From: Nitrospinota bacterium
GTDB taxonomy: Bacteria; UBA8248
NCBI GenBank assembly: GCA_030754595.1
Contig: JASLZZ010000084.1
Span: 12,578-76,577 of the forward strand
Length of the DNA stretch: 64,000 nt
Direction: 5' to 3'
Below the pieces are notes generated by a model. That model was given only the letters and a program-made list of their open reading frames with translations. It ran no database searches and was not told the DNA's origin. How positions within the stretch are numbered: the first letter of the stretch is position 1; the number at the start of each line of letters is the position of its first letter. The position numbers and the translations under genes are program-made. Shown piece after piece: positions 12,359-48,773 of the stretch.

Positions 12359-13534
12359 ATGGCTGACGCGCCAGCGAGCAACACGTGGTTCACCTACTTT
12401 CCCAAGGACTACCGTTGGTCGTCCGCGATTTGCGGCATGCTGACCGGCGCCCGGTGGGGGGGGACCGAGATCGGAGAGGTCGATCAGGTGGGCCGCCGCC
12501 TCGCCAGGAAGATGGGCGACGATAACCACTGGTTCCGCGAGTGGGTGCGGATGGCGGACCGGGTGCGGGAGCTTGGCCGCGCGGCCGAGCGAAAGGGGAA
12601 TAACATCTCCGCCGGGGAGCACTATAAGCGCGCCTGCAACTACTACCAGATGGCCGAGCGCTTCCGCACGCCCAAGGACAAAAAAGCCCTCGACGCTTTC
12701 CGGAAGGGAGTGAACTGCTTTCACCGATTCGCCCGTTTGACCGATCAGCCCAAGATTGAAATCGTGGAGGTTCCCTTCGAGGGAAGAAAAAAACTTCCGG
12801 GGTATTTCGTTCACGCCCAGAACACCCGAAAGGCGAAACCGCCCGTCGTCGTCTTTTTTGACGGCCTCGACATCACGAAGGAGCTCCAGTTCATGCGCGG
12901 CGTGGAGGGCTTGGTGCGCCGGGGGATGAGTTGCCTTGTGATGGACGGGCCCGGTACAGGAGAGGCAATCCGGTTCCGCAAGATTTATTTGCGCCCCGAT
13001 TACGAGACCGCCGGTTCGGCCGCGCTGGACTACCTTGAAAAGCGGAAGGACGTGAACGCGAAGAAGGCGGGGATCATGGCGGTCAGCCTGGGCGGCTACT
13101 ACGCCCCGCGGATTGCCAGCCTTGAGCGGCGCTATAAGGCTTGTGTCGCCTGGGGGGCGATTTGGGACTACTACGCCACCTGGAAAAAGCGCATCGACGA
13201 ATCTTTCAAAACGGAATTGTCGGTGCCGGGCCACCATATAGAATGGATTCTGAATGCAAAGACCCTCGATGAGGCTCTCGAAAAGCTTGACGGTTTCCGC
13301 CTCGACGGGGTGGTTCAGAAGATGCGTTGTCCCTTCCTGCTTACCCACGGGGCGGATGACAAACAGATATCCTTGAAGGACGCCCGCGCGCTCTACAATG
13401 CGGTGGGCTCAAAGGACAAGACCATGAAAGTGTTCTCCGTGGCCGAGGGCGGAGCCCAGCACTGCCAGCGCGACAACCTCTCCATCGGGACGACGTATAT
13501 GTTCGATTGGCTCAAAGATAAACTGGGGGCCTGA
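12359..13534 (+). CDS. Alpha/beta hydrolase, 2,6-dihydroxypseudooxynicotine (DHPON) hydrolase / FrsA-like (paralog 1)
   Basis: FFDGLD, DGPGTGE, nucleophile elbow VSLGGYY, HGADD, GAQHCQ. Confidence 0.85.
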   Translation: MADAPASNTWFTYFPKDYRWSSAICGMLTGARWGGTEIGEVDQVGRRLARKMGDDNHWFREWVRMADRVRELGRAAERKGNNISAGEHYKRACNYYQMAERFRTPKDKKALDAFRKGVNCFHRFARLTDQPKIEIVEVPFEGRKKLPGYFVHAQNTRKAKPPVVVFFDGLDITKELQFMRGVEGLVRRGMSCLVMDGPGTGEAIRFRKIYLRPDYETAGSAALDYLEKRKDVNAKKAGIMAVSLGGYYAPRIASLERRYKACVAWGAIWDYYATWKKRIDESFKTELSVPGHHIEWILNAKTLDEALEKLDGFRLDGVVQKMRCPFLLTHGADDKQISLKDARALYNAVGSKDKTMKVFSVAEGGAQHCQRDNLSIGTTYMFDWLKDKLGA

Positions 13535-13615
13535 TCCCCCTCGGTTTTTCTATTTGATTCCGTTCGGCGTACGGGGCGCTTCGATGCGCCCCTTCCGAGA
13601 AATGGAGAGTATTCA

Positions 13616-14800
13616 ATGGCACGAAAACCAAAAGCGCTCGCGAAGGCCACCTGGTTCACCTATTTTCCCGACGACTACCGCTGGTCGGCGGCGATCAGCA
13701 TTTTATGTTCGATGGCCAACTGGGGCGGCGCCTCGATGGGCGAGATCGACCAGGTGGGCCGGCGGCTGGCGAAAAAAATCGGAGATGACAATCACTGGTT
13801 CCGCGAATGGGAGCGGATGGGAGATCGCCTGAGGGACCTGGGGCTCGCGTCGGAGCGCAAGAAAAATAACCTGAGCGCCGCCGATTTCCACAAGCGTGCC
13901 TGCATGTATTACCAGCTGGGCGAGCGCTTCAGGACGCCCAAGGACAAGAAGGCGAAAGCCTGCTACCGGAAAGCGCTCGACTGTTTCGCGCGCTTCGCCC
14001 GCCTCACCGACCGCGCGCGGATCGAGCGGGTCGAAATTCCCTATGAAAATGGGAAAAAGCTCCCCGCCTATTTCGTCCATGCCCAGAACACGAAAAAGGC
14101 GAAACCGCCGATCGTCGTTTATTTCGACGGCTTTGACGTCTCGAAGGAGATTCAGTTTGTGTTCGGTGCCGAGGATCTGATTCGCCGCGGCATCAGCGTC
14201 CTTCTCGTGGACGCGCCCGGAAACGGCGAGTCCATTAGATTCCGGAATCTCTACCTGCGCCACGATCACGAGGTCGCCGGCTCGGCGGCGCTGGACTACC
14301 TCGAAAAAAGAAAGGACGTGAACGTGAGGCGGGCCGGGGTGATGGCTATCAGCCTGGGCGGCTACTACGCGCCCCGGAACGCCAGCATGGAAAAACGCTT
14401 CAAGGCCTGCATCGCCTGGGGCGCCCAGTGGGACTACCAGAAAATATGGGAGGATCGCATCGCGGCGGCCTACAAGACGGCGCTCTCCGTGCCGGGGCAC
14501 CATCTCACCTGGATCTTCAACGTCAAGACGATGGACGAGGCCCTGGTAAAGCTCGAGGGGTTCAAGCTTGGCGGGGTGGTTGAGAAGATGCGGTGTCCCT
14601 TCCTGCTCGTGCACGGTGAGGACGACCAGCAGATTTCAACGCGCGTGGCGCGTCAGCTATTTAACGCCGTCGGCTCAAAGGACAAGACCTTGAAAGTGTT
14701 CACGGGCAAGGAGGGCGGCGCGCAGCACTGTCAGATGGACAATGTGGCCCTCGCGGTGTCCTATATGTCGGATTGGCTCAAGGAGAAGCTCAAGGCCTAG
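13616..14800 (+). CDS. Alpha/beta hydrolase, DHPON hydrolase-like (paralog 2, tandem duplicate)
   Basis: Same motifs (FDGFD, ISLGGYY, HGEDD, GAQHCQ); colinear with paralog 1 along its whole length. Confidence 0.85.
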   Translation: MARKPKALAKATWFTYFPDDYRWSAAISILCSMANWGGASMGEIDQVGRRLAKKIGDDNHWFREWERMGDRLRDLGLASERKKNNLSAADFHKRACMYYQLGERFRTPKDKKAKACYRKALDCFARFARLTDRARIERVEIPYENGKKLPAYFVHAQNTKKAKPPIVVYFDGFDVSKEIQFVFGAEDLIRRGISVLLVDAPGNGESIRFRNLYLRHDHEVAGSAALDYLEKRKDVNVRRAGVMAISLGGYYAPRNASMEKRFKACIAWGAQWDYQKIWEDRIAAAYKTALSVPGHHLTWIFNVKTMDEALVKLEGFKLGGVVEKMRCPFLLVHGEDDQQISTRVARQLFNAVGSKDKTLKVFTGKEGGAQHCQMDNVALAVSYMSDWLKEKLKA

Positions 14801-26367: not shown

Positions 26368-27354
26368 ATGCCGTTCGAGCGCGACGAAAGTGACCTCGTC
26401 GAAGTGTATTACGAAAAAGGTTGGACGGACGGGCTTCCCGTCGTGCCCCCGACGCGAGAGAAGGTGGACGCCCTGCTTCGGGCGGGCGGTCTTCCCGCGG
26501 ACGACGTCCTCGGAGAAATCGCACCCAATTACGGCGCCGCCACCGGCGAGAAGGTCGCGATCAACGCTGTGATGGCGGGCTGCGCTCCCGAGCATATGCC
26601 CCTTGTCGTCTCGGGCGTCCGTATCATGGCGGACAAGGAATTCAACCTTCACGCGATCGGGGGAATGACCGATTCCGCCTCGCCCCTCGTCATCGTCAAC
26701 GGGCCCGCCCGAGAAGCGGGGGGCATTAACTGCGGAAACGGGGTTTTCGGGAACGGAACGCGCGGGAACGCCGTCGTCGGCCGAGCGTTGATGCTGGTGC
26801 TCGCCAACATCGGGGGTTCGCGGCCGGGCGGGATTTCCCGGACGATGTTCGGCTCGCCGGCAAGGTACTCCTACTGCATCGGCGAGAACGAGGAGGAAAG
26901 CCCCTGGGAGCCGCTTCACGTAGAGCGCGGGATCGAAGCTGGCCGGGGGGCGGTGACGATGCTCCCCTGCGAGTCGCCCCACGAGATTCGGATCGAGGGG
27001 GTGACTAAGGCGGAGGAGATGGCCGATATCCTGGGGCGCTCGATGTGCAGCGTCTGGTCGGCGAACAAGCATCATATTCACATCAGCGGGGTGATTCTGG
27101 CGCTGGGGCCGATGCATGCGGCCGTGTTCGGAGGCGCGGGCTGGAGCAAGGCTGCTACGCGGAACGTTATTTTTCAGTCTGCGATTATGCCCGACGAGGA
27201 AAACGGCTCCCCTTTGCGAAAGTTTTTGTCGCCCGAGGCTATTACGATAATCGTGGCGGGCGGCGCAGGTGGAATTTACAGCATGCTCTTGCCCGGCATC
27301 GCAGACTACATGGGGACGAACATGGTCACCCGGCCGGTCGAGCCCGCGGGGTAG
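26368..27354 (+). CDS. Conserved protein of the type found next to UGSC selenoproteins (unknown function)
   Basis: GWTDGLPVVPPT...EKVAINAVMAGC...VNGP...GENEEESPWEPLH...IIVAGG motif set; immediately upstream of the UGSC gene. Confidence 0.75.
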   Translation: MPFERDESDLVEVYYEKGWTDGLPVVPPTREKVDALLRAGGLPADDVLGEIAPNYGAATGEKVAINAVMAGCAPEHMPLVVSGVRIMADKEFNLHAIGGMTDSASPLVIVNGPAREAGGINCGNGVFGNGTRGNAVVGRALMLVLANIGGSRPGGISRTMFGSPARYSYCIGENEEESPWEPLHVERGIEAGRGAVTMLPCESPHEIRIEGVTKAEEMADILGRSMCSVWSANKHHIHISGVILALGPMHAAVFGGAGWSKAATRNVIFQSAIMPDEENGSPLRKFLSPEAITIIVAGGAGGIYSMLLPGIADYMGTNMVTRPVEPAG

Positions 27355-27409
27355 ACAGAAGTCCCCGGAGCGGCAGGCAGGCGCGGATTTTTTTCTGAAG
27401 GAGAGGATT

Positions 27410-27940
27410 ATGCCCGAGCTATTCGATCCGACCGCGAAGCCGAAGCGCCGCGTCGAGAACCTGGCGGTGCGCCCCGGCAGCCTCGCGGGAAAGGTGATTG
27501 GCCTTCTGGACATCGGCAAGCCGAAGGGGGATTGGTTTCTCGAGGCGGTGGGGGAGCTTCTCAGGGAGAACTACGGGGCCCGCGAGACGGTCTACTACCG
27601 CAAACCGACGCACGCCAAGCCCGCGCCCGGTGAGTTGGCCGAGGAGATCGCCCAGCGGTGCGACGCCGTTGTCGAGGCGCTCGCCTACTGAGGAAGCTGC
27701 ACGACGTGCAGTTTGCACGATGCGGCCTTTTTCGAGCGCTGGGGAGTGCCGGCGGCGCCGGTGGTGACGCGGGAGTTTCTTCAGGCGGGGGAATTTCAGG
27801 CGAAGGCCCTCTTCGGCGGAGACTACCCGATCGTTTTCACCCCTCATCCGGTCGCCCACATGGAAAAGGAAGAGTTCTCCCGGCTCGCGCAGGATGCGCT
27901 CGAGGGGATCGCCGGCCGGCTCATGTCCGCCTCCTCATAA
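27410..27940 (+). CDS. UGSC family selenoprotein (176 aa; Sec at codon 94, TGA 27689-27691)
   Basis: ORFs ending at 27691 and 27940 are in frame across one TGA: ...VEALAY-U-GSCTTCSLHDAAFFERWGVP... Strong RBS before 27410 and a SECIS-like hairpin downstream of the UGA. Confidence 0.9.
27692..27726 (+). promoter_or_regulatory. Candidate bacterial SECIS element
   Basis: GCUGCA-cga-CGUGCA-GUU-UGCACG-a-UGCGGC stem-loop with a G-starting apical loop after a 19-nt spacer from the UGA. An alternative fold AAGCUGCAC/GUGCAGUUU is also possible. Confidence 0.6.
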
Positions 27941-45777: not shown

Positions 45778-45918
45778 CGTATCCTACCGGCTAAATCATG
45801 CCGTTGTTTTAAGCCGTTTAAATGAAATGAATGGGATTTTGACCCTCGAAACGAGACTAGGCCGCGTCAGGAGGCATGTCAAGGAAGCGGGGCGAAGCGG
45901 CGGAGCGGGCTCCTCCGC

Positions 45919-46776
45919 CTACTTCGGCTTGCAGGCGAAGGGCCAAACAACCTTGGCGCCCTCGGGGACGATTTTTCCGGTGGTCGTTTTGTAGGCGAAT
46001 TTTACGGATTTTTGATCGTCCGGCAGGGCTTTTAGCTCGGCTGACTTCGTAGGCCCTCCCTTGTAGAGCGCCATCGGATCCATCCACTCTCCCTTGAGGG
46101 GCACGAAAATCCGCTTGGCGATGTATTTGTTCCCCGGACTGAAAAAGGCGGTGAAGTGAAGATGCGCGTGCCCGAGCGAGCCGTAGTAGCCTCCCTGGGT
46201 GCCGGTGTCGCCGGAGGGGGCGATGACCTCGCCCATTTCGACCCGCTGGCCGATCTCAAGGTCCGGCATCTCGCGCAGGTGCTTGTACTCGGTATAGGTC
46301 CAGACGCCGAGGCCGGTATCCTCGGGCGAATGCTGGAGCATCATCCCGATCCCGCCGATGCCCTCGCCCTCTTTCTTTTGAATAACCCGCCCGGCAGCGA
46401 CGGCGAGGATGGGCGTACCCTCCGGCGCGGGAATGTCCATCCCGCCGTGGTAGCCGTTGTAGTATTTCTGGGTGCGAAAGCTCCCGTCCCCCCGCGAATC
46501 GGAGCCGAACGGCGAGTTCATGATCAGGCAATCGGCGTTCTTGGGATAAACGGGCACTAGGCCCGTCTCAACAAAGCCCTTCGCCCGCATATGGTCAAGG
46601 TCCGCCATCTTGGAAGAGAAGGCGCCGATGATCTCGGGGCTGGGCCGCCCGCCAGGGCCCTTTCTCTTCATCCCGCCGCCGCCCATTCCTCTTCGGCCCC
46701 GCTGGGAGTCCGCGCTATCCACAGCGGCAAGGCAGATGGCGGCCACCAGCAAAACAAGCAGCGACAAACGTTTCAT
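45919..46776 (-). CDS. Secreted M23 family metallopeptidase
   Basis: Signal peptide, Gly/Arg-rich linker, HGGMD (HxxxD), YKHL, GDTG...HLH. Confidence 0.88.
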   Translation of the reverse strand: MKRLSLLVLLVAAICLAAVDSADSQRGRRGMGGGGMKRKGPGGRPSPEIIGAFSSKMADLDHMRAKGFVETGLVPVYPKNADCLIMNSPFGSDSRGDGSFRTQKYYNGYHGGMDIPAPEGTPILAVAAGRVIQKKEGEGIGGIGMMLQHSPEDTGLGVWTYTEYKHLREMPDLEIGQRVEMGEVIAPSGDTGTQGGYYGSLGHAHLHFTAFFSPGNKYIAKRIFVPLKGEWMDPMALYKGGPTKSAELKALPDDQKSVKFAYKTTTGKIVPEGAKVVWPFACKPK

Positions 46777-46803
46777 GGCGTCTCTCCTCTTATCCGGAGT
46801 TGA

Positions 46804-47409
46804 TCATCCTGGGATGTTCATGTTCGCCGTGTCATCGGGCTGGAACCCGATCCGCTCGCCCGGAGGCTCGGGCAGAAGGTGAAGCGCCTCGGCGACGCGG
46901 TTCGAGCAATTGGTGAACCTGGCGACGGCGGTGAGGGTGATGATGTCCCTGTCGTCGAAATTGCGGCGCACCGCCCCCCAGGCCGCCTCGTCGGTCTTGG
47001 CGGTCATCCTGGTCACGGCCTCGGCCCAGCCGATGACCGCCTTTTCCCGCTCGTTGAACAGGCCGCTCTCGCGCCACCCGTCTCCCGAGAGCAGTTCGGT
47101 GTGTTCGTGCGTGTAACCCAGAGCCCGACCGAGCTCTTCGTTGTGCGCGTATCAGTGGCTGCAGGCGTTGATGGCGCTCGCCTTGACGATCATCAACTCC
47201 TCGAGCTTGACGAACTCGACCTCGCCGGATTTGAGGCGCTCGAGCCGCAGCCCCTTGTCCTTGGCGAGCCAGGCCCGGACGAAGGCGGGCGCCCGGCCCA
47301 TGAGCCTGAACAGGTTCGGCACGCTTCCCCACTGGCGCTTGCTCTCCTCGAAAAGATCGGCCACCTCGGCGGGGGTTTCCACTTCGTCGCAAAACGGTAT
47401 TCTCGGCAT
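46804..47409 (-). CDS. AhpD/carboxymuconolactone decarboxylase-like selenoprotein (201 aa; CxxU, Sec at codon 86, TGA 47154-47152)
   Basis: ORFs 47152-47547 and 46804-47016 are in frame across one TGA: ...GSVPN...ELMIVKASAINA-C-S-H-U-YAH...F.EREKAVI.WAEAVT...NRVAEAL. The TGA sits at the second Cys of the AhpD CxxC motif. Confidence 0.88.
47115..47151 (-). promoter_or_regulatory. Candidate bacterial SECIS element
   Basis: AGAGCUC-GGUC-GGGCUCU hairpin with a G-starting tetraloop after a 21-nt spacer from the UGA. Confidence 0.65.
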
Positions 47410-47908
47410 CGGTTCACTCTCCTCGACTTTACGGGCGGCGCGCCGAAGGATGTAGATGAAGCGGCCCGGTCCGGGGAAAAAAAATTCAAAATTCGTTATT
47501 CGGGCAGTACTATCATGAATTATGCGGTAATGCTCTCCCTTTTTCAATTCCGGCCAACGCTCGTCGGCCCGGGCCGGCGGCGCCGCGTGTTCAGGAACGG
47601 GATTGGTGCGGTCTCGTATGTTTGGCCGGATTCACTGGGCCCTGAGAGTGTCCCAGGCGACGGGGGCCGGCGTTTCGGATCATGAATGGGATTTGGAGAA
47701 CATTGTGGATTTAGGCTGAAACCGACCCGCCGCCCGTAATTGGCATAAATTTTATTATTTAAGGCAGCGCTTTTTTAATTTGCCGGGTGAAATGTTGAAA
47801 AATGATCGCCCGGGAAAATGCATAATCCCGATTCTTTCACTATAACGGGGCTAACGGCTTTTATTGCCGGGACAGCCCCTTTTTTTATTGACGCCCTGGA
47901 ATTAATTT

Positions 47909-48773
47909 GTGATGGAAGAGTCGAGGAAGTATTTCGAGCGAGCGCTTGTCGAGGTGGACGCCCTGCCTCCCATCTCGAAGGTTTTCCATAAAATCATGGA
48001 ACTCACCAACGAGGGCGAGGCCGCGCGCGCGGAGTTGATTCACTGCGTCTCGCTCGATCAGGGAATCGCGTCGAAAGTTTTTCAGACGATCAATTCGGCC
48101 TATTTCGGGATACGCCAGGAAATTTCCAGTCTCGAGGTGGCGGTGGGCCTGCTGGGCGACAGAGAGATTCGCGACATCGCCATGATATGCGCCTCCTCGG
48201 GTCTGCTTCGGTGCAACATCCGTGGCTACGGAATTCCGGCCGATCAACTCTGGTTTCACTCGGTCGCGGCGGCGGTCGCCGGGCGCCTGATCGCGGCCCG
48301 CCTTCTGCCGGATATGAAAGAGGCCGCGTTCGCGGCGGGCCTGCTCCACGACATCGGCAAGCTGGTGATAGACCGTTTGATCGAGGAGCCGGAGCGGGAA
48401 GTTTTCAAGGAGCTGGCCGAGGAGATTTCCCCGGGGGTATCACTCCACGGAGATGGACCTGTACGGATTCGATCACTGCACCATCGGATTTTTCCTCGCC
48501 CGTAAATGGAATTTCTCCGAAGAGTTGACCGCGGCGATCGCCTTTCACCACTACCCCGATTTCGATGTCGCTCAAAGGGAATTTATCCGGGTGGTCTGCG
48601 CCGCCGACCTGATGGCTCATCTGGCGGAATCGGAGGAACTCGAGCCGGGCCAGGTGGCCTCCCTCAAGGAGGAGGGCAAGATTCCCATCGAACTCTCCCA
48701 CCCCTAGGTCGAGGAAATTTTCCAAAACCTGATTGAAGAAATCGACGAATCCCGGTCATATCTGAGGATATAG
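47909..48773 (+). pseudogene. HDOD-domain protein disrupted by a frameshift (~48430) and an in-frame TAG (48705-48707)
   Basis: LPP, D..IASK....NSAYFG, AV.LLG and AGLLHDIGKL in the first frame; E...GFDH..IG..LA.KW..S...AI..HH in the second. A plausible helical tail continues after the TAG to a stop at 48773. Confidence 0.8.

Follow-up and report, generated by a model that had tools for sequence, protein, structure and literature searches.

A very probable AhpD-fold selenoprotein, divided in public protein sets, in the genome of a Nitrospinota bacterium

AhpD-like selenoproteins with a CxxU motif were first found in Sargasso Sea and GOS data (PMC2398784), and Table 2 of that source counts, in GOS, 299 selenoproteins alongside 902 Cys homologues for the family 'AhpD-like 1' (COG2128, CxxU), and 255 UGSC-containing proteins. 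A review of 2026 includes an 'AhpD-like protein, TIGR01926, CxxU' along with several related families (PMC13188914). In the AhpD of M. tuberculosis the active site is the tetrapeptide C-S-H-C, and the proton relay is described as comprising Glu118, Cys130, His132, Cys133 and His137 (PMC3141380). With regard to the organism, three MAGs labelled 'Nitrospinota/Nitrospinaceae/Nitrospinae' (GTDB phylum UBA8248) are listed by BSepDB among the ten most selenoprotein-rich bacteria, with 48-54 genes; this 2026 database paper (PMC13326102), the only one found in the literature on selenoproteins with Nitrospina, means that the selenoprotein richness of similarly labelled MAGs is already in print. SOD, SOR and catalase were all missing from the Nitrospina gracilis genome according to the paper describing it, which does not mention selenoproteins (PMC3578206). 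The AhpD-like CxxU family has been in print since 2005-2008 and the gene analysed here is an added member of it, so that a preliminary description of the locus overstated its novelty: such proteins form a long-known and abundant marine family according to the GOS source (PMC2398784).

The gene lies in a stretch of 64,000 nucleotides, hereafter the window, from a Nitrospinota bacterium (assembly GCA_030754595.1, contig JASLZZ010000084.1, positions 12,578 to 76,577). Its coding sequence occupies 46807..47409 on the minus strand and, when translated with TGA as U, has 201 codons with Sec at codon 86. The ATG start was read from the sequence at 47409-47407 (-), and the in-frame TGA, placed by translation and by homologous sites, is at 47152..47154 (-), where the encoded residues are I-N-A-C-S-H-U-Y-A-H-N and the motif is C83-S-H-U86. 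The frame remains open for 115 codons past this TGA (87-201) and reaches a terminal stop at 46804..46806 (-), another TGA, which precedes the next gene's ATG by 27 nt. A recoded first UGA and a terminating second UGA would be the pattern expected of SECIS-dependent decoding. A Shine-Dalgarno-like GAGGAGAG at 47417..47424 (-), found by direct reading of the sequence, is located 7 nt upstream of the ATG, and the protein begins with MPRIP, as do seven public fragments of 85 aa. A promoter-like site, TTGAAA-17-CATAAT, at 47519..47547 (-), about 110 nt upstream of the gene, is a consensus match only, and two such sites occur in 45800-47950 against 0.7 expected from shuffles. Gene finding with table 11 yields a single ORF here, 47152..47547, which ends at the recoded TGA. 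The TGA in C-S-H-U, the 115-codon open frame and the GGUC hairpin of the preliminary description were all found in place; the start coordinate it gave, 46804, is the final base of the stop codon on the minus strand, and its spacing is correct, the first loop base lying 22 nt past the A of the UGA.

Comparison of the protein with the described families revealed that none of its NCBIfam matches reaches a curated cut-off. The sub-threshold matches are to TIGR01926, NF053654 and three weaker AhpD-type models. The best of them, TIGR01926 'peroxidase-related enzyme' (E 2.8e-15, residues 3-182), scores 56.6 bits against a cut-off of 81.8, followed by NF053654 'YciW-related (seleno)protein' with 54.9 against 310, TIGR00777, the M. 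tuberculosis-type AhpD, with 19.4 against 191.95, and NF041238 'alkylhydroperoxidase-related (seleno)protein' with 18.2 against 175. For NF053654 and NF041238, both families of the AhpD fold, Sec is already anticipated by NCBI, and the window protein falls in neither. It resembles the marine 'AhpD-like 1' family in its CxxU motif with Sec for the second Cys and in having common Cys homologues, and differs from it by this score below the TIGR01926 cut-off and by its position in a small subclade of five Sec rows. In Pfam no family is matched at E <= 0.01, PF02627 (CMD) included, a domain that is carried by a 27%-identical homologue (P0003).

More distant comparisons point to the same fold. A profile of 73 homologues searched against PDB sequences retrieved AhpD-core proteins, with 2oyo at E 8e-34 and further matches to PA0269 (2ijc/2o4d), the D. 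radiodurans AhpD 6k40 and the debrominase Bmp8 (6ohi). The AlphaFold2 model (pLDDT 93.1, pTM 0.89) is all-helical, with a helix at residues 84-96 that begins at the redox motif, and Foldseek gave TM-scores of 0.73-0.80 to the AhpD-core structures 2prr, 6k40 and 2oyo. The best matches overall, 2prr, 2oyo, 2pfx, 3c1l and 6k40 (TM-scores 0.70-0.80 over ~180-197 columns, profile E 8e-34 to 4e-27), belong to uncharacterised 'peroxidase-related' AhpD-core structures that agree with the window protein in length and single-domain architecture; all are Cys proteins, 22-27% identical to it. The AhpD-like identity first proposed from the sequence is thus backed by the NCBIfam matches, the PDB-sequence profile search and the fold search, and with the model in hand the AhpD-core fold can be predicted with confidence. 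Likenesses to the M. tuberculosis AhpD include the C-S-H-(C/U) tetrapeptide, the helix-turn-helix AhpD core and an acidic residue 12 positions before the first Cys (E71 before C83 here, Glu118 before Cys130 there). On the other hand, Foldseek TM-scores of the window model to 1gu9 and 1lw1 are just 0.39-0.45, the His conserved at +4 in AhpD and PA0269 is at +3 in the window protein (H89, with Asn at +4 relative to U86), Sec replaces Cys, and the gene stands without an adjacent ahpC. The gene very probably encodes a 201-residue all-helical redox protein of the AhpD core (CMD superfamily), in which the second, putatively catalytic 'cysteine' of a C-S-H-C type motif is U86.

Among 18 full-length homologues the first Cys position of the motif is occupied by C, S or T (Ser in P0027 and P0028). 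Since the second Cys/Sec is the only invariant residue and the first may be Ser, we infer that U86 would be the nucleophile and C83 the resolving residue. By analogy with described AhpD chemistry, the selenolate of U86 would attack an oxidised substrate, which could be a peroxide itself or a peroxiredoxin in its sulfenic or disulfide form; C83 would resolve the adduct as a selenenyl-sulfide, and a cellular thiol system would re-reduce it. The chemistry, the substrate and the reductant are all putative in this scheme, and the chances of a specifically peroxide- or peroxiredoxin-reducing role may be put at roughly even.

A genuine selenoprotein might instead belong to a diversified set of AhpD-fold selenol reductases, each with its own small-molecule substrate and possibly including dehalogenation, rather than recycle AhpC or reduce peroxides. 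Bmp8 is a Cys-dependent debrominase that carries out reductive dehalogenation, and its structures 6ohi and 6ohj are matched by the window protein with a profile E of 1e-30 and TM-scores of 0.63-0.72. Such a reading is also consistent with the 13 divergent Sec paralogues of this genome, which are spread over different subclades that all have Cys relatives of their own, with the lack of a peroxiredoxin neighbour, and with the replacement of the first Cys by Ser in the subclade (S-D-Y-U in the paralogue on contig C105, as well as P0027 and P0028), which fits a chemistry with a single nucleophile. We nevertheless consider it rather unlikely, as peroxidase-related AhpD-core proteins match the structure more closely, no gene of halogen metabolism was found close by, and C-S-H-C is the tetrapeptide given for the AhpD active site (PMC3141380).

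Downstream lies an M23 peptidase gene (45919..46776, (-); Pfam PF01551, E 9.8e-16), which is possibly co-transcribed with the AhpD-like gene; no terminator-like site was found between the two on this strand. The M23 neighbour is kept beside a 91% orthologue (L049) and not beside a 66% orthologue (L047), and no conserved operon partner was found. Beyond the M23 peptidase is a TPP enzyme gene, and upstream, on the other strand, an HDOD gene. No peroxiredoxin or ahpC gene adjoins the AhpD-like gene, and no gene of halogen metabolism was found near it. With no adjacent peroxiredoxin and an M23 neighbour that is not always kept, the context says little on the substrate.

Three further observations may be added here. 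The HDOD gene (47909-48707, (+)) seems split across two overlapping frames, 47909-48505 matching profile positions 1-153 and 48453-48707 positions 164-196, which could reflect a frameshift or faulty assembly. In the 97% sister MAG, at the start of an ODZ_NOB7a contig (L025, 1-280), the stop of the AhpD-like gene is followed almost directly by the last ~18 codons of the M23 gene, most of which seems to have been deleted or misassembled there. Finally, two closely similar FrsA-like/alpha-beta hydrolase genes lie in tandem and in the same frame at 12359-14797 (+) of the window, with a TGA at 13532 between them; this pair was considered as a selenoprotein and rejected, because the second copy has its own N-terminus and the arrangement looks like a tandem duplication.

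The status of the in-frame TGA was assessed across homologous loci, 24 from species-representative genomes and 52 from metagenomes. A motif scan located the site in 73 of these 76 loci (it missed L025, L098 and L099), and two loci with two tandem copies each bring the total to 75 sites, one of them in a locus (L048) that is identical to the window and may share its source. The codon is TGA at 65 sites, TGC at eight and TGT at two. Several phyla are represented in the labels of these loci: the TGA bearers include records titled Betaproteobacteria/Burkholderiales, Gammaproteobacteria, Syntrophobacteraceae and Chitinophaga-labelled MAGs, and the three titled Cys records (L030, L033 and L045) name Alphaproteobacteria and Terriglobia, the other Cys sites being on untitled metagenome contigs. 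At the protein level, an exhaustive HMMER search returned 1847 proteins at E <= 0.001; in all 18 full-length homologues that were aligned, Cys stands opposite U86. These 18 proteins and the 10 of 75 DNA sites with TGC or TGT agree with the placement, in the preliminary description, of the TGA on the second Cys of a CxxC motif. The nearest public records are 'bacterium isolate ODZ_NOB7a' (97%) and 'Nitrospinaceae bacterium'. Two contigs, L046 (843, 3250) and L064 (766, 1500), contain two AhpD-like Sec genes each, 0.7-2.4 kb apart; as these contigs are unrelated, tandem paralogues also occur outside the window's lineage.

Public protein sets hold the same genes in pieces. Among proteins of similar length only two matches were found, a 111-aa C-terminal piece and the 27%-identical CxxC protein with PF02627 mentioned above. 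The 23 shorter ones consist of seven N-terminal pieces, each of exactly 85 aa and ending ...CSH (six) or ...CNH (one), and 16 C-terminal pieces that start downstream of the TGA; the C-terminal fragments are 56-98% identical to the window protein. Such 85-aa heads and separate tails indicate that in many assemblies (NCBI, ENA, JGI and Logan data) gene calling ends at this one codon, just as had been anticipated for standard pipelines. Coding conservation continues past the UGA, as seen in the identities of the fragments, in the family profile match, which extends through residue 182, and in pN/pS values below 1 downstream of the TGA (0.34 and 0.41 in comparison with the 91% and 97% orthologues, respectively).

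Another explanation is a pseudogene or a sequencing error, in which a Cys codon was turned into TGA by one base change, the gene being dead or the base miscalled: TGC or TGT becomes TGA by a single substitution, and public gene calls do end at this codon. Against it stand the TGA at 65 of 75 homologous sites in many independent assemblies, the conservation of the 115 downstream codons, with 60-97% identity in the fragments and pN/pS below 1, and a conserved hairpin specific to the TGA forms. In addition, contigs from two other studies (X7 and X13) span 46700-47476 without any difference at 47152-47154, X13 having three differences from the window elsewhere. These independent contigs exclude a sequencing error as well as a private nonsense mutation, so that reads with TGC or TGT, named in the preliminary description as an outcome that would undo its claim, did not materialise, and any form of this explanation appears highly improbable. 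Contigs from RNA libraries (X16 and X17) cover 46816-47137 and 47147-47298, with possible DNA carry-over in the libraries; none was found that bridges the TGA with at least 31 bases on each side.

Bacterial SECIS elements are stem-loops just 3' of the UGA with a G early in the apical loop, and both features are present here. The core hairpin at 47120..47137 (-), a 7-bp stem with a GGUC loop assigned by folding and covariation, has its arms at 47137-47131 and 47126-47120 and its loop at 47130-47127. It reads AGAGCUC-GGUC-GGGCUCU, with seven pairs of which one is G-U, and spans nt 18 to 35 when the U of the UGA is counted as 1; the GGUC loop is presumably similar to that of the E. coli fdhF SECIS. 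Extended lower stems at 47109..47148 (-) come from a single-sequence minimum-free-energy prediction only. The minimum free energy of the hairpin region, -16.5 kcal/mol, shows no significance over shuffles (z = -0.57, with 59 of 200 shuffles folding at least equally well), and comparison among relatives was therefore used as evidence for the hairpin instead. An Rfam scan of 46950-47300 (E <= 10) returned three chance-level matches (E 6.6-8.2) and no SECIS family.

For this comparison, 50 distinct Sec-form sequences of 51 nt from the TGA onward were aligned free of gaps, and covariation was tested on the core 7-pair helix, columns 18-24 with 29-35. Pairing is observed in 99.1% of the 350 helix cells, with compensatory changes on both sides in three of the seven pairs (11 cells), and the covariation score was reached by none of 500 shuffles; when the 3' arm was slid by 1-3 columns, pairing was only 29-45%. 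Compensatory changes separate the window clade (GAGCUC/GGGCUC) from the Burkholderiales-type clade (GUGCUU/AAGCAC), with the GGUC loop kept in both. In the Cys forms (eight distinct sequences), which serve as a natural control, only 39.3% of cells are paired, no better than in their own slid controls. Moreover, the loop's Gly codon is GGT with C as the next base in 49 of 50 Sec forms and in one of eight Cys forms, a synonymous position that is fixed only where the UGA needs recoding. Judged from these alignments, Sec forms alone keep the predicted hairpin, with compensatory changes, which bears out the SECIS-like element first noted from a single sequence.

The absence of selA, selB or selC would also have spoken against a selenoprotein. 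The genome containing the window (3.55 Mb in 138 contigs, completeness 96.9%, contamination 6.4%) was found to carry selB (364.5 bits) and selA (551.8 bits), both on contig C113, selD (345 bits), which has one in-frame TGA of its own, and a tRNA-Sec (73.6 bits), each above its curated cut-off. In the mechanism we propose, the hairpin with its GGUC loop 22 nt past the UGA would recruit SelB with Sec-tRNA(Sec), Sec would then be inserted at codon 86, and the next UGA, 115 codons on and lacking such a signal, would terminate translation. A genome-wide reading of UGA as Trp or Gly (genetic codes 4 or 25), with no Sec, would account for the open frame and nothing beyond, and its probability is next to nil, as the gene's own stop is TGA, the homologues have Cys rather than Trp or Gly at the column, the full Sec machinery is present, and the TGA-containing AhpD-fold matches have one TGA each, at the redox motif. 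On sequence evidence, we regard the gene as very probably a true selenoprotein gene with a functional SECIS.

A second selenoprotein gene is located in the same window, on the plus strand at 27269-27940, with its TGA at 27689-27691, 19.5 kb from the TGA of the AhpD-like gene. The frame 27269-27937 matches the UGSC family (Pfam PF24696, E 6.3e-46) across the TGA, with the motif U-G-S-C; the start is likely an ATG near 27410. The start of a 6-bp hairpin, which has a GUU loop, lies ~22 nt past the U of the UGA. The two selenoproteins within 20 kb that had been announced at the outset are therefore both accounted for.

Genome-wide, 16 matches to an AhpD-fold profile were obtained. A single in-frame TGA lies in 13 of these, and in all 13 it coincides with the second redox-motif position (12 CxxU and one SxxU). 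The twelve besides the window gene are on contigs C50, C30, C102, C64, C105, C72, C109 (three sites), C126, C122 and C137 and comprise 11 CxxU and one SxxU, the S-D-Y-U paralogue of C105; in several, a GGUC loop follows the UGA with equal spacing. The TIGR01926 cut-off is passed by only two of the 13 (117.1 and 134.4 bits). TGA-containing matches were also found for the UGSC family (three of three), Rdx/SelW-like proteins (one of one) and AhpC-TSA (PF00578; eight of 16, of which six have one TGA, one has two and one has a TGA and a TAA), and for none of seven thioredoxin matches. The eight AhpC-TSA matches, on C65, C17, C109 (twice), C43 (twice), C110 and C114, are candidate genes for Sec-containing peroxiredoxin-like proteins. 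With selD included, the genome has at least 26 candidate selenoprotein genes, half of them of the AhpD fold, the position of the TGA having been checked in the 13 AhpD-fold genes and the UGSC gene of the window and the other candidates being counted by TGA presence. These figures agree with the view of a selenoprotein-rich organism put forward in the preliminary description. A region of contig C109 at ~8.3-66 kb contains three Sec AhpD-fold genes, a non-Sec paralogue, a UGSC gene and two AhpC-TSA matches with TGA, and may be a selenoprotein-dense region. A crude window scan for TGA plus hairpin was noisy, missed the AhpD-like gene through its ORF rules and was dropped; a stricter genome-wide filter gave 220 unvalidated candidates, which are leads only and were left out of the counts.

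The comparison was extended to a set of 21 genomes, the present one and 20 relatives from the same genus to the same class. AhpD-fold profile matches at E <= 1e-10 occur in every one of the 21 and number 249 in all; among the best 150 of these, counted by hand, 129 have one TGA, 16 none, three two TGA and two TAG, and relatives down to class level show the same expansion of AhpD-fold Sec genes. In a quick tree of 96 rows the window protein belongs to a well-supported clade of five Sec rows, the neighbour of which is a paralogue paired with a Cys protein; the Sec and Cys labels require at least six changes on starred branches of this tree, in which several branches are long. A search for catalase (PF00199) gave no match in the present genome or in 11 of 12 relatives. 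Fe/Mn SOD domains are present in this genome and in 11 of those 12, which makes the parallel with N. gracilis only partial.

Taken alone, the gene is unremarkable among marine selenoproteins, but it points to a genome with 26 or more candidate Sec genes. In the public protein sets (NCBI, ENA, JGI and Logan) it is held solely as an 85-residue head and a separate tail, and its subclade is captured by no curated model; as none of these models reaches its cut-off, the subfamily is systematically missed in annotation. A broader possibility, which we advance tentatively and with more doubt than confidence, is that the window gene is part of a lineage-wide radiation of AhpD-fold selenoproteins, most of them outside curated models and overlooked by standard annotation, in a marine lineage of MAGs labelled Nitrospinaceae/Nitrospinota and 'ODZ_NOB', with catalase not found in most of the genomes searched. 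Protection against peroxides and redox stress could then depend mainly on these hidden proteins, together with Sec peroxiredoxin-like, UGSC and SelW-like proteins. Some of the AhpD-fold paralogues may have turned to a different selenol chemistry, for instance dehalogenation. The Sec-containing AhpD-fold and peroxiredoxin-like proteins would then carry the peroxide defence and, if this is true, the supply of selenium would matter to these organisms, for which it would be a limiting micronutrient.
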